Shown: positions 26,087-38,228 of the stretch, piece by piece
Position numbering within the stretch: the first letter of the stretch is position 1
Layout of the letters: every line of letters begins with the position of its first letter
NCBI GenBank assembly: GCA_012519315.1
Contig: JAAYQM010000001.1
Coordinates: 10,730-74,729, forward strand
Reading direction: 5' to 3'
Origin: Clostridiales bacterium
Lineage (GTDB): Bacteria; Bacillota; Clostridia; Oscillospirales; CAG-272
DNA length: 64,000 nucleotides
Position numbers and translations under genes: made by a program
Notes under the pieces: generated by a model
What the model saw: only the letters and a program-made list of their open reading frames with translations
The model's database searches: none
Told to the model about the DNA's origin: nothing

Positions 26087-29053
26087 ATGGGAAGAAACAA
26101 ATTTATCAGATTAACAGCTCTGTTGTTGTCTCTGCTAATGGTCGGCGGCTTTTATGCGTTGCCTGCTGCTGCGGCTGAAGATAGCAAGCAAGCATCGTCG
26201 TCAACTCGCACGCTCGAAGAATTAAAGGAATTGCTGAATACCATCTCATATAGCGGGTATTTAGCTAAATATTCTAATGTGCCAAGGGCTACATCGAGCA
26301 TTTTAATCGACGCAGCCGATTACGATGAGGAAAATACGACTGCAGAGGTTGAAGTGCGCAGCAATTATGAGGGGAAGTCGGGCGATTCCCTTTTTATTCC
26401 TGAAAGCGGCACTGTCTCCTGGTCGGTTGATATTCCTGCCGACTCACTTTATAACATAAAAATTGAGTATTATCCGATTGTTGCAAAATCATCGTCAATC
26501 GAAAGAGTCTTCCTTATTAATAATAAGGTTCCTTTCGCTGAGGCGAGATATCTTGTAATGTCTAAGGTATGGACAAACTCATATCTTACCGATGACGAGG
26601 GCAACCCGGCCTACCGCAAGGATCTTGGGGGGAACGATCTTCGTGTGCAAACCAATCAGACTCCTGAGTGGCGCACCTATGTTTTTTCCGATTCCAGCGG
26701 TTATTATAAGGGAGCCTTTGAGTTTTATTTTGAAAAGGGCACTAACATCATTTCTCTGGAAGCTGTCAGAGAGCCTGTTGTTATAAAATCGATTGAGCTT
26801 TATCGCCAGTCGGAGCTTCCTAAATATGAAGATTATCTAAAGGAAATCGAAAAGAAGAACAACACGGCGACCGATGTTGATCCTATTTATATTCCTGCCG
26901 AATTTCCGGTTGCTATTTCGGATGAGTCCATCTATGCATCTAACGACCGTACCTCGGCAATTACTGAGCCTCAGTCGGCAAAGGCCCAGCTGTTTAACGT
27001 TATAGGCGGACAGGGCAACTACAGGACCGTTGGACAGTGGATTCGGTATGAATTCGAAGTTGAGAAGGACGGACTGTATGAGATTGTCGCCCGCTTTAAG
27101 CAAGATAAGCTGGCAGGTATGTTTACCTCCAGGGTTATCAAGATTGATGGTGAAATTCTCTTTGAAGAGGCTTATAATGCCCGCTTTGAGTACTCCAAGG
27201 AATGGCAAGTGAAGGCCCTGGGTGACGGTGAAAACACCTTCCAATTTTATCTGGAAAAGGGGAAGCACACTATCGAGCTTGAGGTTGGGCTCGGAGAACT
27301 TGCCACTATACTCAACCAGGTTGAAAATACTCTTTCGGTTATCAACGATTCTTATCTTGAAATTATGAAATTGACCGGTTCTTCGCCGGATAAATATCGC
27401 GATTATGGTTTCTTCCGCATTATGCCCAATACCATTATTGACCTGCTGGTTGAAGGCCGCAACCTTGATAAGGTTTCGGAATATCTGACCGAGCTGGCAG
27501 GCGAGAAGGGGTCTCATGTTGCGACTCTTGACAAAATTTCTTTTCTGCTTAAAAAGATGGGATCTTCTGAAGATCAAATCGCAAGAAACCTGTCAAATCT
27601 AAAGTCCTATATTGGTACTCTTGGCACCTGGCTCAACAGCTCGAAAACCCAGCCATTGACACTTGACTATCTCCAGATTCAACCGGTGGGCGATCCCCTT
27701 CCTAAGGGCAAGGCCGGCGTATTTGAATCTATTTGGTTTGAGATCCGCTCTTTCTTCAACAGCTTCTGGGTTGACTATAGTGTAATGGGAGCAACCGCTG
27801 AGGTTGACACCGATGATGTCGTTGAGGTATGGATTGCCGAGGGAAGAGACCAGGCGAAGGTTATCAGAAATATGATTGACAGTATGTTTACGCCTCAAAC
27901 TGGCATTGCTGTTAACCTGAAACTGGTTGCCGGAGGAACATTGCTACCCTCTGTTTTGTCCGGACAGGGACCGGATGTTTATATTGGTCTCGGAAGTGCG
28001 GACACCATTAACTACGCAATACGCAGCGCGGTTCAACCGCTGAATGATTTTGACGGCTTTGAGGAAACGACAAAGAACTTTACCGAGGCTGCCATGGTTC
28101 CCCTTACTTTGTATGGAGAAACATACGGTTTGCCTGAGAAGATGGGCTTCCCGATGATGTTCTATCGTCAGGACATTCTTGCAAATCTGGGTATCGAAAT
28201 TCCTAAGACTTGGGAAGATGTTCTCGCTGCCGTTCCGATTCTTCAGGCAAACAATATGATGATCGGTCTTGCGCGTGAGTATGAGATGTTCCTATATCAG
28301 ATGGGCGGAGACCGTTATGCCGATGAGGGTATGAGAATCGGTCTTGAATCCAACATTGCCCTTGAGGCTTTTGATTATTACTGCAGCTTCTACACCATGT
28401 ATTCCTTCCCGGTTACTTATGATGCGGCTAACCGTTTCAGAACCGGTGAGATGCCTATTATCATTTCCGATTATACCAGCATGTATAACCAGTTAACCGT
28501 TTTTGCAACCGAGATTCGCGGACTTTGGGAATTTGTACCTGTTCCGGGTACTCTCAGGGAGGACGGCACTATTAACAACGTTTCGATTGCGGGCGTTTCG
28601 GCTGTCGTTATGCTGAACGGTGCTGATAATCCCGAAAAATCATGGGAGTTTATGAAGTGGTTTACCGGCGCTGAGGCACAGGCAAGATATTCCAACGACC
28701 TCGTTACCACTATCGGGCCTGCCGCAAAGCACAATACGGCGAACAAGTTTGCGCTTGAGGAAATGCCCTGGACTACCAATGAATATAAGAATTTGATGGC
28801 TCAGTTTGACAACCTTGCGGCTATTCCCAACTATCCCGGAAGCTATATTGTAGCGCGCTATGTAAACTTTGCCTTCCTTGCGGCATATAACGATAAAAAG
28901 AACCCTGCAGAAGAATTGTTAAGCTATATTACCATAATAAATAAAGAAATAACCAGAAAACGCAAGGAGTTTAACCTCGAAACCCTTGAGTTGGGCGAAA
29001 CCCTTGCAGAGAAAAGAGCCCGCGAGGCTGCCGGAGCAGATACCGGTAAATAG
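26087..29053 (+). CDS. Giant (988 aa) extracellular solute-binding protein: signal peptide, two CBM6-like beta-sandwich modules, a helical linker, then a family-1 carbohydrate SBP domain
   Basis: Signal peptide LLSLLMVGGFYALPAAAAE, with no lipobox Cys. Module 1: SGTVSWSVDIPADSLYNIKIEYYP. Module 2: VGQWIRYEFEVEKDGLYEIVARFKQ. The last ~400 aa are SBP_bac_1-like (VVEVWIAEGRDQAKV..., GPDVYIG, YGLPEKMGFPMMFYRQD). RBS aggagga. Confidence 0.8.
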   Translation: MGRNKFIRLTALLLSLLMVGGFYALPAAAAEDSKQASSSTRTLEELKELLNTISYSGYLAKYSNVPRATSSILIDAADYDEENTTAEVEVRSNYEGKSGDSLFIPESGTVSWSVDIPADSLYNIKIEYYPIVAKSSSIERVFLINNKVPFAEARYLVMSKVWTNSYLTDDEGNPAYRKDLGGNDLRVQTNQTPEWRTYVFSDSSGYYKGAFEFYFEKGTNIISLEAVREPVVIKSIELYRQSELPKYEDYLKEIEKKNNTATDVDPIYIPAEFPVAISDESIYASNDRTSAITEPQSAKAQLFNVIGGQGNYRTVGQWIRYEFEVEKDGLYEIVARFKQDKLAGMFTSRVIKIDGEILFEEAYNARFEYSKEWQVKALGDGENTFQFYLEKGKHTIELEVGLGELATILNQVENTLSVINDSYLEIMKLTGSSPDKYRDYGFFRIMPNTIIDLLVEGRNLDKVSEYLTELAGEKGSHVATLDKISFLLKKMGSSEDQIARNLSNLKSYIGTLGTWLNSSKTQPLTLDYLQIQPVGDPLPKGKAGVFESIWFEIRSFFNSFWVDYSVMGATAEVDTDDVVEVWIAEGRDQAKVIRNMIDSMFTPQTGIAVNLKLVAGGTLLPSVLSGQGPDVYIGLGSADTINYAIRSAVQPLNDFDGFEETTKNFTEAAMVPLTLYGETYGLPEKMGFPMMFYRQDILANLGIEIPKTWEDVLAAVPILQANNMMIGLAREYEMFLYQMGGDRYADEGMRIGLESNIALEAFDYYCSFYTMYSFPVTYDAANRFRTGEMPIIISDYTSMYNQLTVFATEIRGLWEFVPVPGTLREDGTINNVSIAGVSAVVMLNGADNPEKSWEFMKWFTGAEAQARYSNDLVTTIGPAAKHNTANKFALEEMPWTTNEYKNLMAQFDNLAAIPNYPGSYIVARYVNFAFLAAYNDKKNPAEELLSYITIINKEITRKRKEFNLETLELGETLAEKRAREAAGADTGK

Positions 29054-29119
29054 TAGCTGTTGCTCAGCGGTATGCTGATTCGGCAAAGTTGATAAATACT
29101 TAGTTAAGGAGAGATGTAC

Positions 29120-30067
29120 ATGTCACAGAACACGGCAGTAAAGCGCCCTGTTTCTCGTAAGGATATGACGCGGGCACAGTGGACATGGAAGGAAATGAAG
29201 CGGAATAAGGTCGCCTATCTGATGGTGGCCCCCTTCATGATTCTGTTTACGTTGTTCACGGTATTCCCGGTTGTTCTATCGATTATTTTGAGCTTTACAG
29301 AGTTTAATCTTCTACAGTTTCCGCGACCGGTTTATATGGACAATTATATCCGGTTGTTCCTTGATGACGATATCTTTATATTAGCTATCAAGAACACTTT
29401 TATATTCGCTTCTGTTACAGGACCTGTTTCATACTTTATGTCCCTTATGATCGCGTGGTTTATCAATGAGTTGTCCCCGAAAATAAGGTCGGTTGTTACC
29501 CTGATCTTTTATTCGCCGTCAATATCGGGTTCGGTGTATTTGATTTGGCAGATTCTTTTCAGCAATGACTCTTATGGATTTGCCAACGGAACATTGATGA
29601 CTCTCGGTATTATTGATGCGCCCATCCTTTGGTTTAATGATGCAGACTACGTTATGTGGTTGTGTATTGTTGTTGCTCTATGGACATCTCTTGGTACCGC
29701 ATTCCTTTCGTTTATTGCCGGTCTGCAGACGATTGACCGCAGCCAGTATGAGGCTGCATCGGTTGACGGTATTCGCAACAGATGGCAGGAGCTGTGGTAC
29801 ATTACCCTTCCGAACATGAGACAGCAGTTGATGTTCGGTGCAGTTCTTTCGATTACTCAGTCCTTCGGATTTGGTTCTGTTGTTACTGCACTTGCCGGTT
29901 TTCCATCGGTAGAATATGCTGCTCACACAATTATGCACCATCTTGACGACTATGGCGGGCAAAGATTTGAGGTTGGATATTCGTCGGCGATTGCCGTTGT
30001 ACTCTTTGCCATCATGCTGGGATCAAACCTTCTCGTTAAGAAAATGCTTAAGAAGGTAGGTCAGTAA
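29120..30067 (+). CDS. Carbohydrate ABC transporter permease, MalF/UgpA type (pair 1)
   Basis: Six TM helices. EAA-loop region YEAASVDGIRNRWQELWYITLPNM. RBS aaggagag. Confidence 0.85.
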   Translation: MSQNTAVKRPVSRKDMTRAQWTWKEMKRNKVAYLMVAPFMILFTLFTVFPVVLSIILSFTEFNLLQFPRPVYMDNYIRLFLDDDIFILAIKNTFIFASVTGPVSYFMSLMIAWFINELSPKIRSVVTLIFYSPSISGSVYLIWQILFSNDSYGFANGTLMTLGIIDAPILWFNDADYVMWLCIVVALWTSLGTAFLSFIAGLQTIDRSQYEAASVDGIRNRWQELWYITLPNMRQQLMFGAVLSITQSFGFGSVVTALAGFPSVEYAAHTIMHHLDDYGGQRFEVGYSSAIAVVLFAIMLGSNLLVKKMLKKVGQ

Positions 30068-30071
30068 TGCG

Positions 30072-30944
30072 ATGAAAAAATTAAGAACTCGAAAACACGC
30101 AGTTGTTCTCAACCGCTCTGTAGGTGGGGACATCGGAATTAACTTTTTCCTTATTCTCATGGGAGCCTTCATGTTCCTTCCGATGCTTTATGTTGTGATG
30201 CAGTCACTTAAGCCTTTGGATGAGCTTTGGATGTTCCCGCCGCGTTTTTACGTTATTAATCCGACATTTCAGAATTTTGGTGATTTGTTTACCCTTATGG
30301 GTGAGAACTGGGTTCCGTTCTCGCGGTATGTATTTAACACAGTCTTTATCTCGATTACAGGAACATTCGGCAACCTTCTGTTTTCTTCGATGGCTGCATA
30401 TGCCCTTGCTAAGATTAAATTCCCGGGGCGTAATGTAATGTTCCAAATGATCGTTTTGTCCCTTATGTTCCACTCTACGGTAACCTCGGTTGCAAACTTC
30501 ATTACGATGAGCGCAATTGGTTGGGTTGATACATATTTTGCTATTATAGTTCCTGCGTTTAGCACAACGCTTGGCCTTTACCTTATGAAGCAATTTATGG
30601 AGTCGGCCGTATCTGACGAGGTGCTTGAAAGTGCGCGCTTGGATGGTTCCGGCGAATTTAAGACCTACTGGCTTATTGCAATGCCGATGGTTAAACCCGC
30701 ATGGCTTACCCTTATGATAGAGTCCTTTAAGGGTCTTTGGAACTCCGGGTCGTCCATCTATATTCAGAGTGAGCAGCTCAAGTCATTCAACTATGCTATT
30801 AACCAGATCGTTTCGGGCGGTATTGCCCGTGCGGGTGCCGGTGCGGCGGCAACGGTTGTTATGATGATAGTACCCATTACAGTATTTGTTATCTGCCAGA
30901 GCAATGTTATTGAAACAATGGGCTCCAGTGGAATGAAAGATTAA
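30072..30944 (+). CDS. Carbohydrate ABC transporter permease, MalG/UgpE type (pair 1)
   Basis: EAA loop LESARLDGSGEFKTYWLIAMPMVKP. Six TM helices. Confidence 0.85.
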   Translation: MKKLRTRKHAVVLNRSVGGDIGINFFLILMGAFMFLPMLYVVMQSLKPLDELWMFPPRFYVINPTFQNFGDLFTLMGENWVPFSRYVFNTVFISITGTFGNLLFSSMAAYALAKIKFPGRNVMFQMIVLSLMFHSTVTSVANFITMSAIGWVDTYFAIIVPAFSTTLGLYLMKQFMESAVSDEVLESARLDGSGEFKTYWLIAMPMVKPAWLTLMIESFKGLWNSGSSIYIQSEQLKSFNYAINQIVSGGIARAGAGAAATVVMMIVPITVFVICQSNVIETMGSSGMKD

Positions 30945-30957
30945 GGAGGGAATATAT

Positions 30958-33084
30958 ATGAATAAAATTATAAGAATCATGCTTCTCTCCGTTTGCGCAA
31001 TCATGCTTTTGGCGCATTTTCCGATTGGCGCAGCCGAACCTTATCAGACCTATACCTACTCTATCGATGGTGTGCCCTTGTATTCTCCGGCGGCATATGC
31101 CCCTCTTATGAATGTTGACTCAAACTATATGGGGCTTAGTACACCTTTTGATGACCCGAGAGATATCTTCGTTGATAAGGATCAGAGGGTATATTTATCC
31201 GACGGGAAAAACAACCGGGTCATTGTTATGGATAAATATTATAAGGTTTCGTTTGTAATTTCTGATTTTATTAATGATCAGGGTGTTCCGGATAAGCTGA
31301 CCAATCCCTCCGGTATTTTTGTAAACGAAGACAGTATTTATGTTTGTGACACCGATGCGAATCGTATAGTCCTGTTTGACCATAAGGGTGAATTTAAGAA
31401 AATCATCCCCAAACCGGTGTCTAAACTGTTTGGATCCGATGCTATTTATAAGCCGGTTTCCATGGTTGTTGACGAATACGGCAGACTATATGTTATTTCC
31501 TCTACAACCTATCAAGGTGTTATTGTCATGACCGAAAATGGAGATTTTACCGGCTTTATCGGTGCTCAGAAGGTTGTCTATAACATCCTTGATATAATAT
31601 GGAGACGATTCCAGACAGAGGAGCAGAGAAAGGCTTCAATCCAGAATATTCCAACTGAGTTTAACAATATAACAATTGACAGTAACAATCTGATTTATGT
31701 TACCACTTCCTCGATTCCCGAGTCGAAGCAGCAATCCGCAATAACAAGCAAGTCTCCTGACTATGCGCCTGTTAAAAAGCTCAACGCCAATGGCGACGAG
31801 GTTATGAAGAGAAACGGCTTTTTTGCCCCGAATGGGGAGGTTTATGTGACCAATCGCTCAACGGCTCAAATTACCGGTGCATCAAGGATTATTGACGTTG
31901 CAGTCGGTCCTGAGGGAACATGGTCAATTGTTGATGAAAAGCGTCAAAAAGTTTTCACTTATGACTCAAACGGAAACCTGCTTTTTGCTTTTGGTGACCT
32001 CGGAAGTCAGCTTGGCAACATGACAAGCGTGAAGGCTATTGCTTATCAAGGAGATCGAATTCTTCTGCTTGATAAGACCGCTGATGTTATCACCGTTTAC
32101 AATCGAACTGAGTATGGTGATATACTGATCAGCGCCCTTGCAAATGAGAATCGAAACAATTACGACATCGCTGTTGAGTATTGGACCGAGATACTTAAGA
32201 GAAACAGTAATTTTGATGCCGCCTATATTGGTATCGGCAGATCCCTTTATCGCGAGGCTAATTATAGGGAAGCGCTTAAGTACTACGTTTCGGCTTACGA
32301 TACAGAAAACTACTCTGACGCGTTCAGAGAGATACGCAAAGAGTGGATTTCTAAGTATATCCTGACTATACCGATCGGTGCGATAATTATTATTTTCCTG
32401 TGGACTAAATTCTTGAAGTACGCAAGGAAGGTTAATGCTCGCACAGCGGTCAAGGTTGGTAAAAGAACCTTTAAGGAGGAATTGATTTACGGATTCCACT
32501 TGATATTCCATCCCTTTGACGGATTCTGGGACTTGAAGCATGAAAAGAGAGGCTCGGTTCGTGCATCACTTATCTATATTGCTGTTGTTGTTCTCTCTTT
32601 CTTCTATCAGTCCATTGGACAGGGATATGTTTTGAATCCCCGCAACTCCTATTCTACAATTGTCGCTCAGGCTTTGTCGGTTATTGTACCGATGCTCTTG
32701 TGGGTAATTGCAAACTGGTGTTTGACCACCCTCTTTGATGGCGAAGGAAGCTTTAAGGATGTTTTTGTTGCGGTATCCTATTCCCTTGTTCCTCTCCCGC
32801 TCTTCATCATACCGTCAACGATACTTTCAAACTTTGTTACCGTTGATGAATCACAGATTATTGGTTTCCTTGTAACAATTGGTTTTGTTTGGACAGGTTT
32901 CTTGATATTCTTTGGTATGATGGTTACACATGATTATACCCTTGGAAAAAATATCATTACATCACTTGGAACAATTGTTGGCATGGGCTTCATTATGTTT
33001 GTAGGGATACTCTTTACCAGCTTATTGTCGAAAGTGCTTTCATTTGTGACGCAAATTGTTACTGAGATCAGTTTCCGTATTTAG
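30958..33084 (+). CDS. Secreted NHL-repeat beta-propeller plus TPR-like segment, fused to a C-terminal Yip1-family multi-TM domain
   Basis: Signal peptide MLLSVCAIMLLAHFPIGAAEP. NHL-like blades (RVYLSDGKNNRVIVMD, IYVCDTDANRIVLFDHKGEF, LYVISSTTYQGVIVMT, and more). TPR-like helices AVEYWTEILKRNSNFDAAYIGIGRSLYREANYREALKYY. Yip1-like signature TTLFDGEGSFKDVFVAVSYSLVPLP within about 6 TM helices. Confidence 0.7.
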   Translation: MNKIIRIMLLSVCAIMLLAHFPIGAAEPYQTYTYSIDGVPLYSPAAYAPLMNVDSNYMGLSTPFDDPRDIFVDKDQRVYLSDGKNNRVIVMDKYYKVSFVISDFINDQGVPDKLTNPSGIFVNEDSIYVCDTDANRIVLFDHKGEFKKIIPKPVSKLFGSDAIYKPVSMVVDEYGRLYVISSTTYQGVIVMTENGDFTGFIGAQKVVYNILDIIWRRFQTEEQRKASIQNIPTEFNNITIDSNNLIYVTTSSIPESKQQSAITSKSPDYAPVKKLNANGDEVMKRNGFFAPNGEVYVTNRSTAQITGASRIIDVAVGPEGTWSIVDEKRQKVFTYDSNGNLLFAFGDLGSQLGNMTSVKAIAYQGDRILLLDKTADVITVYNRTEYGDILISALANENRNNYDIAVEYWTEILKRNSNFDAAYIGIGRSLYREANYREALKYYVSAYDTENYSDAFREIRKEWISKYILTIPIGAIIIIFLWTKFLKYARKVNARTAVKVGKRTFKEELIYGFHLIFHPFDGFWDLKHEKRGSVRASLIYIAVVVLSFFYQSIGQGYVLNPRNSYSTIVAQALSVIVPMLLWVIANWCLTTLFDGEGSFKDVFVAVSYSLVPLPLFIIPSTILSNFVTVDESQIIGFLVTIGFVWTGFLIFFGMMVTHDYTLGKNIITSLGTIVGMGFIMFVGILFTSLLSKVLSFVTQIVTEISFRI

Positions 33085-33106
33085 AAACAGGATAGGAGAT
33101 AATACT

Positions 33107-36100
33107 ATGAATAAATACAAATTTTTATCCGGTTTCATGGCGATACTGATACTATTCGGAGTTTTCGGTGTGTTCGGCGGTACACTTCAGATCAGTGCCG
33201 CAGATGATCAGACTGAAGAAGAGGAAATCCCTGATTATACCGATGCAAAAAATGCATATAAGACTCCCGAAGAAAAACTTGCTACGATGGTTAAAAAGCT
33301 TGACCAACACGGTTATGAGCTCTGGGTTCATGAGATAACCGGAGAAGTAGCAACAGTAGATAAGAAAACCGGACAGATTCTATTTACCAATCCCTATGAT
33401 GTTGCCGATCCTTCGAATCAGGCGTCAACATCGACAAAGGAGCAGTTGCTCTCGCAAATTATTATCAAATATACTGATAATGATACTGAAAAATTCTTTT
33501 ACAGTTATACCGAGGCAGCTCTCAGAGAACAAATCAATATTAAAAACATCAAGAACGGTATTCGTATAGAATATACCCTCGGTCGTGAGGAAACAAGATA
33601 TCTTGTTCCTCGTATGATCGAGAAATCAAGATTCGAAGAGCTGATTGTCGCCAATATCACGAATGATTTTGACAGAGGAAAGGTGACCGCTCTTTACACG
33701 TTGATGGACCCCTTTGAGGAAGGTCTTTCGGAGCGCGCTCAGAAAGAGATGCAAATCAACTTTCCTATCACTAAGAAAATGGCGGTTTACGTAATAGCCA
33801 GTGATACCAAGCCGCGTGAGTTCCGTCAGACAGAGGCTTATATTAAGACATACTGCCCGCTGTACTCATATGAAGAGCTTGAAAAAGACCATATGCTCAC
33901 AGAGTATACAGGGACAGATGTAGCACCCCCTCTCTTCAAGCTTTCTCTCGAATATACCGTTGACGAATGGGGAATGTCTGTTCGTCTCCCCGCAAACGGT
34001 ATTCGTTTTGACGAAACAACCTATAAGCTGAACGAGGTTCGCATTCTTCCTTATATGGGAGCAAACAGAGCCGAGTGCAAGGGATATACATTTATACCCG
34101 ATGGCAGCGGCGCTCTCCTTCGCTCGGAGGATCTGGCCGGCAAGAATGCAACGATAACTGGTCGGTTGTATGGTCCGGATTTTGCCTATCATACGATCAC
34201 CGGCGCCCATGTTGAAACGATGAGACTTCCTGTCTATGGAGTTGTTGAAAACTATAAAGGCAAGAAGACGATAGAAACAAGCCGGGAAGTACCTATAATC
34301 GATCCGGAGACCGGTGAGGAGACTTCGGAAACCGAAACTGTTATCGAAAAAGAAACAGTAGATTATAAGGAAGACAGAGGTTTTCTGGCAATTATTGAAG
34401 AAGGTGACGCCTTAGCGAGCATTACGTCGGCTCATGGAGGCATCGTTCACAAATACAACTCGGTTTACACCGCCTTCTTCCCAAGACCAAAGGATAAATA
34501 CAATCTTCGTGATGCGATATCTGTCGGTTCAAACGCGGAGTGGACGGTAGAGTCCTCGCGCAAATATGTCGGTAACTACCGAATCCGTTTCATTATGCTC
34601 TCTGACCCGGATATTATTGAAGAAAAATCTCTTACCAATGCCTATGAAGCAACCTGGATCGGCATGGCTAAGGCTTACAGAGAATATCTTGAGAGCAAGG
34701 GCGTTTTGAAAAGGCTGACCGAGAATGATGTGAAGAAGGATATGCCTCTTTACATTGAAACCTTTGGAGCCATTGATGCTCAGAAAAAGATCCTTTCCGT
34801 TCCGGTTACCGTCAGCGTTCCTTTAACCACCTTTGACAATGTCCGGGATATGTATAACGACCTTAAGGAAGCCGGCATTACAAATCTTAACTTCAGGTTG
34901 ACCGGATACGCAAACGGAGGTATGTCCTCAACAGTGCCCTATAAGCTAAAGTGGGAAAAGGCTGTTGGTGGCAAATCCGGATTTAAGGATCTGCTTGCCT
35001 ATGCAAAGGAGAACGACTTTGGCATTTACCCCGATTTCGACTTTGCTTATATAAACAAAACAGCAGCTTTTGACGGTGTTTCCCTTAAAAAGCACGCTGT
35101 TAAAACAATTGACAATCGTTATTCGAGTAAGCGGGTATATGACGCGGCTCTCCAGTCCTTTGTAAGCTATTACAATCTTTGCATTTCTCCCTCGGTTTTC
35201 AACCGTTTCTATACTAAACTGACTAGCAATTATTCTGAATATGATCCGATCGGGATCTCCGTTTCAACGCTTGGTACCGATCTCAACTCAGACTTTGATA
35301 AGAAAGATCCGTATAACCGTGAAGACTCTAAGGCTTTCACCGTTTGCATCTTTGAATCAATGGTCAAGGATTACGCAAGCGTTATGACCGACGGCGGTAA
35401 TGCTTACACCCTTAAATATGTCGATCATCTTCTTAATGTATCTCTTGACAGCAGCCGTTATCTTAATGCAAGCGACTCTGTTCCCTTCCTTGGGATGGTG
35501 CTGCATGGATATGTTAACTTTGCCGGTACACCTATTAACATGGCGGCCGACATTGACCATGCAATGCTGAAGGCTGTTGAGAACGGTGCGGCTCTCTATT
35601 TCACATTATCTTATCAGAATATCGAAAAATTAAAGGAAAGCGCCCTGTTTAGCAAATACTATTCGGTTAGATATGACATATGGTTTGACGAGCTTGTACA
35701 AAGATATCAGACTCTCAACGAAATTCTGGCACCGCTTCAGACGTCGCTGATTGTCGATCATTCATTCTTGATAGGTGAGCGCATTGCTGATCCTGATGAA
35801 ATAGAGGCAGATCGTATTGAAGCTGTGGAAAAGGCTGAAGCCGAAAGGCTGGAAAAAGAAAAGCAAGCCGCCAAGGAGGCACTCCAAAAGCAGAGAGAGG
35901 ATTATGAAGCGGGACTTATCCAGCCCGGTCAGACTATTGAGGTGCCACCTGTTGAGACAGAAAATGGAGACGAGACAGAACAACCGACAAATCCCGGATC
36001 TGATGAATATGTTTATACAAAGTACACATCGGACGACGGTCGCATAATAAAAGTTACCTATGAAAATGGCGTATCCTTTATCCTGAACTACAATGGATTT

Positions 36101-36169
36101 GCCATTACCGTTGTTGATAACGGGGTAACATATGAAATTGATTCGTATGACTTTGTAGTCATCGAATGA
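33107..36169 (+). CDS. Large (1020 aa) N-terminally anchored or secreted protein, DUF5696-like; possible glycoside-hydrolase-like barrel with an acidic coiled-coil tail
   Basis: N-terminal TM/signal segment FMAILILFGVFGVFGG. Conserved-looking blocks: YTFIPDGSGALLR, LPVYGVV, GFLAIIEEGDALASI, PLYIETFGA, NLNFRLTGYANGGM, GIYPDFDFAY, VPFLGMVLHGYVNFAGTPINM. Tail: EADRIEAVEKAEAERLEKEKQAAKEALQKQRE. The family name is from memory and is unverified. Confidence 0.6.
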   Translation: MNKYKFLSGFMAILILFGVFGVFGGTLQISAADDQTEEEEIPDYTDAKNAYKTPEEKLATMVKKLDQHGYELWVHEITGEVATVDKKTGQILFTNPYDVADPSNQASTSTKEQLLSQIIIKYTDNDTEKFFYSYTEAALREQINIKNIKNGIRIEYTLGREETRYLVPRMIEKSRFEELIVANITNDFDRGKVTALYTLMDPFEEGLSERAQKEMQINFPITKKMAVYVIASDTKPREFRQTEAYIKTYCPLYSYEELEKDHMLTEYTGTDVAPPLFKLSLEYTVDEWGMSVRLPANGIRFDETTYKLNEVRILPYMGANRAECKGYTFIPDGSGALLRSEDLAGKNATITGRLYGPDFAYHTITGAHVETMRLPVYGVVENYKGKKTIETSREVPIIDPETGEETSETETVIEKETVDYKEDRGFLAIIEEGDALASITSAHGGIVHKYNSVYTAFFPRPKDKYNLRDAISVGSNAEWTVESSRKYVGNYRIRFIMLSDPDIIEEKSLTNAYEATWIGMAKAYREYLESKGVLKRLTENDVKKDMPLYIETFGAIDAQKKILSVPVTVSVPLTTFDNVRDMYNDLKEAGITNLNFRLTGYANGGMSSTVPYKLKWEKAVGGKSGFKDLLAYAKENDFGIYPDFDFAYINKTAAFDGVSLKKHAVKTIDNRYSSKRVYDAALQSFVSYYNLCISPSVFNRFYTKLTSNYSEYDPIGISVSTLGTDLNSDFDKKDPYNREDSKAFTVCIFESMVKDYASVMTDGGNAYTLKYVDHLLNVSLDSSRYLNASDSVPFLGMVLHGYVNFAGTPINMAADIDHAMLKAVENGAALYFTLSYQNIEKLKESALFSKYYSVRYDIWFDELVQRYQTLNEILAPLQTSLIVDHSFLIGERIADPDEIEADRIEAVEKAEAERLEKEKQAAKEALQKQREDYEAGLIQPGQTIEVPPVETENGDETEQPTNPGSDEYVYTKYTSDDGRIIKVTYENGVSFILNYNGFAITVVDNGVTYEIDSYDFVVIE

Positions 36170-36185: not shown

Positions 36186-37184
36186 ATGAATAACGCGAAA
36201 ACAACAACCGCGGTAAAGAAGAGCAATTCTAAATCCGCACCAAAGCGAAAACGCATTGCATCTCTCGACAAACGCAAAGCGCGTGCCGGTTGGTTTTTTG
36301 TGCTCCCCTTTGCAGTGGGCTTTATAGCAATTTATCTGCCGATAATTTGGGACTCTATATGGCTTAGCTTCAATCATTTTAAGACAAACAGAGGGGGCGG
36401 TGGTTTTACGCTAACCTTCGTCGGATGGGAAAACTATCGTAATGCGCTTTTTGTTGATCCGAATTTCGTCAGAACGCTGGTTTCCGGTATTCAACAGCTG
36501 ATATTTGACATTCCGGCTATTGTAATTTTCTCCCTTTTCGTTGCGGTACTGCTAAATCAGAAAATGCTTGGTCGAGCCGCATTCCGCGCAATATTCTTTA
36601 TCCCGGTTATTCTTTCAACCGGTCTTATCGAATCGATCGACGCCCGGAATACAATGCTTAGCTACATGGGTGATGAGATGGGCGGCATTGAAAGCGGTTC
36701 GGGGCAAAATGCCGCAGCGCAGATTGTATCGGCGCTTGATGTCGAGCGATTGTTTGCCAATATGAAGGTAGGTACCGAAATTGTCGATTATGTTGTTAGT
36801 GCAATAAACAGCATATATGACATTGTTAATAGGTCGGGGGTTCAGATGCTAATCTTCCTTGCCGGACTCCAATCAATTTCCCCAGCTATTTATGAATCCT
36901 GTCAGATTGAGGGAGCGACCGCTTGGGAGACCTTCTGGAAAATCACCTTCCCGATGATTAGTCCGATGATTTTGGTTAACGCTGTTTATACTATTATCGA
37001 TTCATTTACAACTGAAGCAAACGTGGTTATGTCCTATATACAAAATGAAGTTTATACTCAGGCAAACGGTCAGGTTATTTCCGCGGCCATGTCTTGGATG
37101 TATTTCTTACTTGTTATTATAATACTTGCCGTTTTTGCCGCTATCGCATCAGCCTTTGTGTTCTATCAAAGGCGTGATCACTGA
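36186..37184 (+). CDS. Carbohydrate ABC transporter permease, MalF/UgpA type (pair 2)
   Basis: Basic N-terminus, six TM helices, EAA loop YESCQIEGATAWETFWKITFPMISP. Confidence 0.85.
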   Translation: MNNAKTTTAVKKSNSKSAPKRKRIASLDKRKARAGWFFVLPFAVGFIAIYLPIIWDSIWLSFNHFKTNRGGGGFTLTFVGWENYRNALFVDPNFVRTLVSGIQQLIFDIPAIVIFSLFVAVLLNQKMLGRAAFRAIFFIPVILSTGLIESIDARNTMLSYMGDEMGGIESGSGQNAAAQIVSALDVERLFANMKVGTEIVDYVVSAINSIYDIVNRSGVQMLIFLAGLQSISPAIYESCQIEGATAWETFWKITFPMISPMILVNAVYTIIDSFTTEANVVMSYIQNEVYTQANGQVISAAMSWMYFLLVIIILAVFAAIASAFVFYQRRDH

Positions 37185-37202
37185 TGAGAAGGAGATGAAA
37201 AA

Positions 37203-38228
37203 ATGAATACACAAAAATTAAATACATCTCCGAGAATCAAAAGAGAAACTAAGAATAAAATCAGGGTTGAATTTGAACGGACTCCTTTCCTTGAGAGGAT
37301 GAAGGCCAGATTTGGTACGACATATTTTGCACAAAGGGTTGTCTGGTATGTTTTCCGTTTTGTTCTCCTGCTTGGTATTTCTTATGTAATTCTTTTCCCG
37401 TTTTTTGCGAAGATCTCGGGTTCCTTTATGAGCCCAAACGACTTTGTTGATGTAACGGTTCGATTGATACCAAAATATCCAACATTCGATATTTACAGAG
37501 CAATCTTTGTCGAACAACAATATATGAAGGCTTTTATGAATACAGCACTCCTATCCGTATCAACAGCGCTGATTCAAACCTTTATCTGCTCTGTCGTCGG
37601 ATACGGCTTTGCAAAGTTTAAGTTTAAAGGTAACACCCTTCTCTTCCTTGCTGTTGTTCTCACTATGATTATACCTCATGGTACTTTACAGTTTGCTTTG
37701 TTTATGAAGTTCAGATATTTTGACGTGTTCGGTCTTATGAGGCTTATCTCTGGGCAAACACTCACTTTGACCAACACCTTCTGGCCTTTGATTCTTATGT
37801 CACTGTTTGGTCTTGCTTTTAAAAACGGGCTTTACATCTTTATGATGAGACAGTTTTATCGCGGTGTGCCGGATGAGCTTGAGGAATCCGCATATGTTGA
37901 CGGTTCAGGTGTATTTAGGACCTTTATACAGATCATTCTTCCCCTGTCTGTTCCTATGATGATTACTATATTCCTCTTCTCATTCTCTTGGCAGTGGACA
38001 GATGATTTCTACACAACTCTCTTCTTTACAACCACCAGAACCGTGCTTATGCCGACGATTGTTGGTATACCCAACTCTCTCCAGACAAACTATGCCGGAC
38101 AGAATCTTTACTATGCTGCGATTAACAGCACCTGTGGTCTTATGATCATTGCGCCGCTGATTATCGTATACCTCTTCTGTCAGAAATTCCTTGTGCAGGG
38201 TATAGAACGTTCGGGTATTATTGGATAA
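37203..38228 (+). CDS. Carbohydrate ABC transporter permease, MalG/UgpE type (pair 2), with a ~45-aa basic N-terminal extension
   Basis: EAA loop EESAYVDGSGVFRTFIQIILPLSVP. RBS aaggagatg. Confidence 0.85.
   Translation: MNTQKLNTSPRIKRETKNKIRVEFERTPFLERMKARFGTTYFAQRVVWYVFRFVLLLGISYVILFPFFAKISGSFMSPNDFVDVTVRLIPKYPTFDIYRAIFVEQQYMKAFMNTALLSVSTALIQTFICSVVGYGFAKFKFKGNTLLFLAVVLTMIIPHGTLQFALFMKFRYFDVFGLMRLISGQTLTLTNTFWPLILMSLFGLAFKNGLYIFMMRQFYRGVPDELEESAYVDGSGVFRTFIQIILPLSVPMMITIFLFSFSWQWTDDFYTTLFFTTTRTVLMPTIVGIPNSLQTNYAGQNLYYAAINSTCGLMIIAPLIIVYLFCQKFLVQGIERSGIIG

Follow-up and report, generated by a model that had tools for sequence, protein, structure and literature searches.

DUF5696 (PF18952) is a Pfam family without assigned function. 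The member described here is encoded at positions 33107–36169 of the forward (+) strand of a 64,000-nucleotide stretch of contig JAAYQM010000001.1 (positions 10,730 to 74,729; assembly GCA_012519315.1, Clostridiales bacterium). This whole stretch is called the window below, and coordinates are those of the window unless another locus is named. By its profile match, the protein of 1020 amino acids (aa) is a member of DUF5696; by profile comparison and predicted structure, it is a (β/α)8 glycosidase relative closest to glycoside hydrolase (GH) families GH129 and GH101. We give a probability of about 0.5 to the reading that it is a surface glycosidase of the GH129/GH101 superfamily with a relocated catalytic carboxylate. 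Because the column of the GH129 nucleophile is occupied by Ser/Thr in this protein, its activity would need such a relocated carboxylate, for which Asp645 is proposed. A preliminary description of the window had guessed at a TIM-barrel, glycoside hydrolase-like DUF protein working with a transporter, and the fold and profile homology described below agree with the core of this guess.

Fold and kinship of the DUF5696 protein

An AlphaFold2 model of the protein was built on 88 homologues. Its mean predicted local distance difference test score (pLDDT) was 85.9 and its predicted template modeling score (pTM) 0.82, and low confidence was confined to the signal region and residues 945–965. DSSP on this confident model showed the alternating β/α blocks that had been noticed in the sequence. 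A Foldseek search against PDB gave 328 matches at E <= 0.001, of which the best 50 were listed. The top matches were the GH129 enzyme DagB (5opq/8rzk; E 1e-26 to 3e-25, template modeling [TM] score 0.68 on the target) and the α-N-acetylgalactosaminidase NagBb of Bifidobacterium bifidum, also of GH129 (5wzp; E 7e-21, TM 0.68–0.72 on the target), which matched along the whole chain. GH101 enzymes (EngBF and SpGH101; E ~1e-12, TM 0.27–0.38) ranked after GH129 and were followed by a GH36 galactosaminidase and then by GH31/GH36 enzymes (E 1e-8 to 1e-12). The GH31/GH114-like placement proposed earlier thus shifts: GH31 is a more distant structural match, GH129/GH101 are the closest, and neither GH114 nor another GHL family appeared among the 50 of 328 matches listed or in the Pfam searches. 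A non-enzymatic fold, which the preliminary description had considered as an alternative, is not what the model and the Foldseek search gave; both indicated a GH129-type barrel. The three domains that define GH129 (N-terminal β-sandwich, (β/α)8 barrel, and C-terminal β-sandwich) were all found in the model, whose layout also agrees with the published one of DagB. The latter consists of a β-sandwich, a TIM barrel, and an Ig-like C-domain (PMC5698469).

We compared a DUF5696 profile of 155 sequences with a GH129 profile of 14 sequences using hhalign. The latter included NagBb residues 28–627, transcribed from a tool alignment, with NagBb numbering taken from the PDB alignment and checked against PMC5698469. 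The two profiles matched with a probability of 99.5–99.9% (E 1.7e-22 local and 2.2e-35 global), and the alignment paired residues 241–1001 of the DUF5696 protein with 45–627 of NagBb, covering all three domains. Furthermore, Pfam DUF5696 scored a 613-aa and a 621-aa protein from the same taxonomic family at 77.4 and 79.9 bits (E 1e-21 to 2e-22), above its gathering cut-off of 25.6 bits; as judged from these scores, the Pfam DUF5696 and GH129 models therefore overlap. Its phmmer match to 5wzn (E 6e-129) marks the 613-aa protein as a true orthologue of NagBb, and the 621-aa protein is its paralogue. Both proteins match GH101, and the 613-aa one also matches GH129. Their genes stand in tandem in locus L098 (1100–2941 and 4421–6286, both on the minus strand) with a 479-aa open reading frame between them. 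A separate family of short proteins (563–575 aa) matches DUF5696 (E 1e-39 to 1e-45) and, weakly, DUF6259; no paper mentioning DUF6259 was found. This short family (L096, 1415–3142 [−]; L097, 1138–2829 [−]) sits between GH129 and DUF5696 and retains the two catalytic residues, Asp ('YID') as nucleophile and Glu ('SE') as acid/base.

The Pfam models of GH129 (PF11308) and GH101 (PF12905) did not match the DUF5696 protein, nor did they when the barrel was searched by itself at E <= 10; the protein is therefore a relative within the superfamily and not a member of the GH129 family. Pfam GH31 and Melibiase did not match either, a PDB sequence search with the protein found nothing, and a profile of the close homologues gave a weak match to NagBb in PDB (E 0.38) beside chance matches to interferon-gamma. 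By the lack of a Pfam GH129/GH101 match, the protein falls short of family-level similarity to an already characterised CAZy family, which the preliminary description had named as the other alternative. Judging from sequence, DUF5696 is probably a new CAZy glycoside hydrolase family.

The gene itself is a stop-free frame of 1020 residues plus stop. An AGGAGA ribosome-binding site (33094–33099) lies 7 nt before its ATG, the gene upstream ends at 33084, and the gene downstream begins 16 nt past the stop. Pfam DUF5696 matched the product with 483.9 bits (E 9.7e-145) in two stretches split by a clade-specific insert, and it was the sole family matched at E <= 10 when the protein was searched in three pieces; an NCBIfam scan gave nothing useful. 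A homology search at E <= 1e-3 returned 4464 representatives of 50%-identity clusters, and a word-indexed search at least 1953 matches, all of them unnamed or titled 'DUF5696 domain-containing protein'. That this is a real 1020-aa DUF5696 protein, as first described, is thus borne out by the frame, the ribosome-binding site, and the family. Likewise, the idea that it is N-terminally anchored or secreted agrees with a hydropathy scan, which found one hydrophobic segment (residues 4–32) followed by ISA/ADD. Residues 1–31 (33107–33199, +) form a predicted signal peptide or signal anchor that begins with MNKYK, has a 20-residue hydrophobic core and low pLDDT, and contains no lipobox Cys. Ala31 is kept in at least 90% of the 88 close homologues.

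Four parts follow the signal region in the model. An α/β region (residues 45–258; 33239–33880, +) with pLDDT mostly >85 lies outside the PF18952 model, and canonical 860-aa DUF5696 members have a similar N-terminal region of 250 aa. The N-terminal β-sandwich (residues 259–500; 33881–34606, +) covers Pfam profile positions 5–133 and is homologous to the GH129 N-domain, with residues 241–500 paired by hhalign to NagBb 45–230. It holds the family-invariant P331-D332-G333-x-G335 and D358, and a long acidic β-hairpin at ~384–420 is a clade-specific insert. The (β/α)8 barrel (residues ~510–880; 34634–35746, +) was delimited from DSSP, Foldseek (GH129, GH101, GH36, and GH31), and hhalign, and its strands by DSSP are 548–553, 594–599, 639–643, 716–718, 758–762, 774–776, 804–806, and 829–835. 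Residues 881–893 and 976–1020 together form the C-terminal β-sandwich. Its last strands (976–1020; 36032–36166, +) have pLDDT of 89–96, correspond to Pfam profile positions 571–606, and are paired by hhalign with the C-terminus of NagBb. Between these two parts lies an insertion found by DSSP, pLDDT, and charge scan (residues 894–975; 35786–36031, +), which consists of an acidic helix of 39 residues (896–934) and a disordered acidic linker; it is clade-specific and is bypassed by both hhalign and the Pfam profile. The acidic coiled coil and small β domain described earlier at the C-terminus are thus a helix and linker inserted into a conserved GH129-type C-terminal domain. The five motifs picked out earlier are all present (at residues 329, 547, 597, 639, and 792), with the correction that FIPDGSGALLR belongs to the N-terminal β-sandwich and not to the barrel.

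Catalytic columns and the alternation of residues 645 and 721

In GH129, D435 of NagBb is equivalent to D486 of DagB and is the sole catalytic residue conserved between both enzymes; the acid/base position differs between them, and an Asp of the DagB N-domain (D202) is essential (PMC5698469). In our alignment, these residues lie within AYLD435VF and ADITD486IT, and the NagBb acid/base Glu within LTSSE478EV; the D486N entry 8rzk confirms DagB D486. The nucleophile column of the DUF5696 protein is Ser720-Thr721 (35264–35269, +), which offers no carboxylate. D435 aligns to T721 by MAFFT and to S720 by hhalign, and among the 88 close homologues, 81 have T and 7 have S at column 721. As far as these sequences tell, the canonical GH129 nucleophile is absent from the whole clade of this protein. 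The column of NagBb Glu478 is Asp762 (35390–35392, +) by both MAFFT and hhalign; it is D in 54, E in 17, and another residue in 17 close homologues, and N, D, E, or S in the wider family.

Other acidic residues of the barrel are more strictly kept. Asp645 (YPDFD645F; 35039–35041, +), the proposed relocated carboxylate, lies just past strand 3 and is D in 87 of 88 close homologues. Asp729 (LNSD729FD; 35291–35293, +) in the loop after strand 4 is D in 88/88 close homologues and 138/155 sequences family-wide, and Glu551 (YIE551TFG; 34757–34759, +) in strand 1 is E in 87/88 and, family-wide, E or D in 141/155. The importance that had been ascribed to the DFDF and IETFG acids is consistent with the family-wide conservation of D645, D643, and E551, with the reservation that the GH129 nucleophile column itself is Ser/Thr. 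Even among paralogues of ~25% identity, the N-domain keeps P331-D332-G333-x-G335 and D358, and the barrel keeps E/D551, N603, D/E643, D/E645, D729, R738, Y767, H800-G801, N811, D815, and E825; at least 10 of the positions conserved across these paralogues are polar or acidic. The Asp of NagBb 'VYHD' maps to Gly801. By analogy with the 'D-x-x-D' of DagB, Asp725 and Asp729 were considered as a shifted nucleophile. Both were set aside because the gap-free alignment within the family places the Asp discussed next on T721; Asp729, moreover, aligns with NagBb Cys445 and is conserved in both types of members.

Some DUF5696 members have Asp at 721, and these lack an acid at 645. A homologue search seeded with a Paenibacillus sequence added 115 sequences with 39–75% identity to the seed; in this Paenibacillaceae clade, 115/115 carry 'SLRD721' together with Ala, Ser, or another small residue at 645. 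A profile built from these 721-type members alone matched GH129 with a probability of 99.3%, and D435 fell one residue from D721. Of 270 sequences, 125 have their acid solely at 645 and 129 solely at 721; 3 have an acid in both columns, and 13 have none, three of which carry Glu at 720. The alignment within the family is gap-free around both columns, which are flanked by G-x-Y-P-D and by G-[IL]-S … N-S-D-F. When mutual information with average product correction (MI-APC) was calculated over 543 well-filled columns, the top-ranking pair among 144,453 was 645–721 (z 9.6), with 602–720 and 608–720 next. Because other top pairs join adjacent barrel strands (548–834) or the N-domain loop 341–343 and the barrel loop 787–789, the measure seems to detect real contacts. 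Raw Fisher values for the two columns (3.6e-10 and 3.6e-57) ignore relatedness and are not to be taken as probabilities. In a GH129-rooted tree, the outgroups were in the 721 state, and within DUF5696 the two states changed at least 6 and at least 10 times on supported branches. From this pattern we infer that one carboxylate is needed at the rim between strands 3 and 4 across the family. The ancestral GH129 position would have been kept in Paenibacillaceae and moved to Asp645 in the clade of the protein studied here.

The remodelling of both canonical columns, with D729, E551, D332, D358, and D815 more conserved than either, would also suit the same fold with another chemistry, such as a transglycosylase, a phosphorylase, or an inverting or substrate-assisted hydrolase acting via D645, D729, E551, and D332. 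Hydrolases, transglycosylases, and phosphorylases are all known to occur on the related GH13-like barrel fold. However, the sequence points to no particular alternative, and the 721-type members look like ordinary retaining enzymes, so that we regard another chemistry as rather improbable.

A conserved cassette with two permease pairs

The DUF5696 gene is the fifth of seven co-directional genes of a cassette for ATP-binding cassette (ABC) transport. The first (26087–29053, +) encodes a 988-aa solute-binding protein (SBP; Pfam SBP_bac_8 and SBP_bac_1), which is syntenic and carries the SBP fold at residues 600–880 after a long N-terminal extension. This extension of 600 residues (26087–27900) has no Pfam match except for a faint one to Golvesin_C (E 0.005), and the homologue of the giant SBP in L001 gives the same faint match. 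Genes 2 and 3 (29114–30944, +) encode a first CUT1-type permease pair (Pfam BPD_transp_1; NCBIfam UgpA/UgpE- and MalG-like). Gene 4 (30958–33084, +) encodes a membrane protein with an NHL propeller, TPR, and Yip1 by Pfam, and is always directly upstream of DUF5696, while genes 6 and 7 (36186–38228, +; Pfam and NCBIfam) encode a second permease pair and are always directly downstream. The cassette in the window contains no ATPase or regulator gene. On another contig (C126; L117, 685–1773, +), we found an orphan ABC_tran+TOBE_2 ATPase of MsmX/MalK type (362 aa), which likely energises both permease pairs.

The fixed position between transporter genes, pointed out in the preliminary description, holds in every checked locus with enough flank. 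Essentially all of 80 such loci in metagenome-assembled genomes (MAGs) of gut Clostridia show the same gene order, as do each paralogue in multi-copy genomes, the loci of Paenibacillus and Gracilibacillus, and the single Treponema locus examined. Across the phylum, all 20 sampled loci had an intact block of NHL-Yip1, DUF5696, permease, and permease; the SBP-permease-permease block lay upstream of it in 13 and downstream in 3, and was not found within 9 kb in the other 4. The cassette may thus be described as two modules, [giant SBP, permease, permease] and an invariant [NHL-(TPR)-Yip1, DUF5696, permease, permease]. In several taxa, the NHL-Yip1 gene has been split in two. A literature search on the combination of Yip1, NHL, ABC, and glycoside hydrolase found no paper.

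DUF5696 was present in 24 of 25 sampled genomes of the source's own family and in 32 of 401 genomes across the phylum (~8%); the source genome has one copy. Many close homologues (P0123, P0131, P0140, P0160, and similar ones; 1800–2545 aa) have 800–1500 extra C-terminal residues. Pfam found no informative extra domains in five longer homologues (1358–2545 aa), and the extensions of P0131 and P0140, the longest of those scanned, were without Pfam match. Two further records carry the Clostridia-type cassette: L059, under the name of an archaeon (Methanocorpusculum sp. RGIG8706), and L065, under that of an Erysipelotrichales bacterium (Bulleidia sp.); the coordinates and identities of L059 are those of L054, a contig of an Oscillospiraceae MAG. 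Both records are probably mis-binned contigs.

In the reading to which we give about even odds, the exported cell-surface barrel enzyme would be the glycan-processing part of this conserved ABC sugar-uptake cassette. Asp645 would take over the role of the lost strand-4 carboxylate, and D332 and D358 of the N-domain, together with E551, D643, D729, R738, H800, and D815 of the barrel, would make up the rest of a functional active site. At the cell surface, the enzyme would trim or cleave a plant or host glycan that had been captured, and the adjacent permeases, powered by an MsmX-type ATPase encoded elsewhere in the genome, would import the pieces.

Several results weigh against this reading. 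The canonical nucleophile is missing in the protein, the acid/base column is not conserved family-wide, and the register of strand 4 differs by one residue between hhalign and MAFFT. The either/or pattern rests on few independent events; phylogeny-aware contrasts gave ~3 in the expected direction versus ~0.2 in the other (p about 0.25; underpowered). The spatial closeness of Asp645 and residue 721 is inferred from barrel topology and covariation. A literature search on DUF5696/PF18952 found no paper that mentions the family and no measured activity for any member. Finally, the gene was never seen apart from the permease pair, which would also suit a transporter subunit.

Some of these observations agree with a pseudo-glycosidase, which would have lost its nucleophile and would only hold or present a glycan, serving the second permease pair as a receptor or accessory subunit, perhaps together with the NHL-TPR-Yip1 protein. 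Besides the clade-wide Ser/Thr in the nucleophile column and the variable acid/base column, the gene always immediately precedes a permease pair for which the window contains no separate SBP gene, a position normally taken by an SBP gene. It was never found on its own, and its paralogues diverge strongly, as binding proteins do. On the other hand, the GH129 nucleophile in 115/115 Paenibacillaceae sequences makes part of the family look catalytic, and the gain of an invariant Asp645 in lineages without the 721 Asp is not predicted by simple decay. The acids, Arg, and His conserved across paralogues that neighbour different glycan genes also resemble catalytic machinery rather than substrate-specific binding. 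SBP Pfam families did not match the protein, and its model is a TIM barrel with β-sandwiches and not a two-lobed periplasmic-binding fold; to our knowledge, no TIM-barrel receptor of a type I ABC importer has been described.

The loci of genome G390 bear on the same question. In two of its three loci without the giant-SBP block, the gene after the second permease pair encodes a conventional SBP of 435 aa, which counts against the pseudo-glycosidase and also weakens the separate idea of DUF5696 as a replacement SBP of that pair. The neighbours in these three loci are GH106-like, pectate lyase, GH140-like apiosidase, GH31, and GH27 genes; in other genomes, the cassette is accompanied by GH5, GH130, SASA, GH31, GH42, GH2, sulfatase, and GH78-/GH127-like genes and by AraC or LacI regulators. 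Because the nucleophile is strict in the 721-type clade, Asp645 is gained in a complementary manner, and conventional SBPs occur where the giant SBP is absent, the balance shifts towards catalysis, and we consider a non-catalytic receptor possible at about one chance in four's worth of credence, clearly below the relocated-carboxylate glycosidase.

The obligatory linkage to NHL-Yip1 and the permeases would be compatible with a coupled 'cut and import' complex. It is conceivable, though doubtful, that DUF5696 and the NHL-TPR-Yip1 protein are integral extracytoplasmic subunits of the second ABC translocon and that the barrel, active or not, docks on the permeases and passes the glycan, or the product just released from it, directly to the channel. 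Cutting would then be tied physically to import, and a type I ABC importer would have a receptor that is not of SBP fold. In Bacillus subtilis, the Yip1-family protein YknW works with a MacB-type transporter, which hints that Yip1 domains act as partners of ABC complexes. A YknX/FtsX/ABC (MacB-type) system follows the cassette in Gracilibacillus (L116, 14357–19816). The same obligatory co-occurrence, together with the clade-specific long helix, which could mediate oligomerisation, might be taken to indicate a structural or assembly factor of an envelope complex with no glycan chemistry or binding. This is very unlikely, as the conserved polar residues cluster in or after the barrel strands and in covarying N-domain loops, a hallmark of a ligand site.

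Significance and comparison with known systems

The placement near GH129/GH101 gives DUF5696 a testable biochemical hypothesis and concrete residues. If the relocation is true, the alternation between Asp645 and Asp721 would illustrate neatly how, in nature, a catalytic carboxylate can move from one barrel strand to the next. On sequence grounds, the candidate features that set this protein apart are a rearranged active site and a conserved transporter context, both of them unusual. The seven-gene cassette with two translocons is common to gut Clostridia, soil Paenibacillaceae, and at least one Treponema, and the function of DUF5696 would be the key to what appears to be a general Gram-positive counterpart of the polysaccharide-utilisation locus.

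NagBb (5WZN/5WZP) has the same full-length three-domain architecture as the DUF5696 protein at ~10–15% identity. Common motifs are GW/GY-x-x-GG after strand 2, a conserved Asp near the end of strand 3, H/D-P-x-x-R after strand 4, and VP-x-x-x-x-V-x-H. In contrast to NagBb, the DUF5696 protein is exported, has a 250-aa N-terminal addition and the helix/linker insertion, and is set in an ABC cassette. DagB is the best structural match, and its essential N-domain D202 parallels the invariant D332/D358 of DUF5696. Unlike the DUF5696 protein, DagB keeps the strand-4 nucleophile D486, is periplasmic, and belongs to a carrageenan locus of Bacteroidota with no link to ABC permeases. The GH101 endo-α-N-acetylgalactosaminidases (EngBF, 2ZXQ; SpGH101, 5A57) have a related barrel but are much larger, multi-domain enzymes that keep the nucleophile. 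GH101 surface enzymes free a disaccharide, which is then taken up by an ABC system (PMC8106489).

Gram-positive CUT1 sugar importers with a shared MsmX/MsmK ATPase have permeases and an SBP of the same type as the permease pairs and SBP of the cassette. We know of no described CUT1 system in which two permease pairs, a 1000-aa SBP, an NHL-Yip1 protein, and a GH129-like protein are fixed parts.

The nearest comparison is with the 721-type DUF5696 proteins of Paenibacillus, Cohnella, and relatives (e.g., P0285), which belong to the same Pfam family and the same cassette. They share D332, D358, E551, D643, D729, R738, H800, and E825 with the protein described here and differ in the 'SLRD' Asp, in Ala/Ser at 645, and in their length of ~865 aa without the helix/linker insertion. 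Since cultured Paenibacillus species carry the cassette, a bench study of these proteins is possible.

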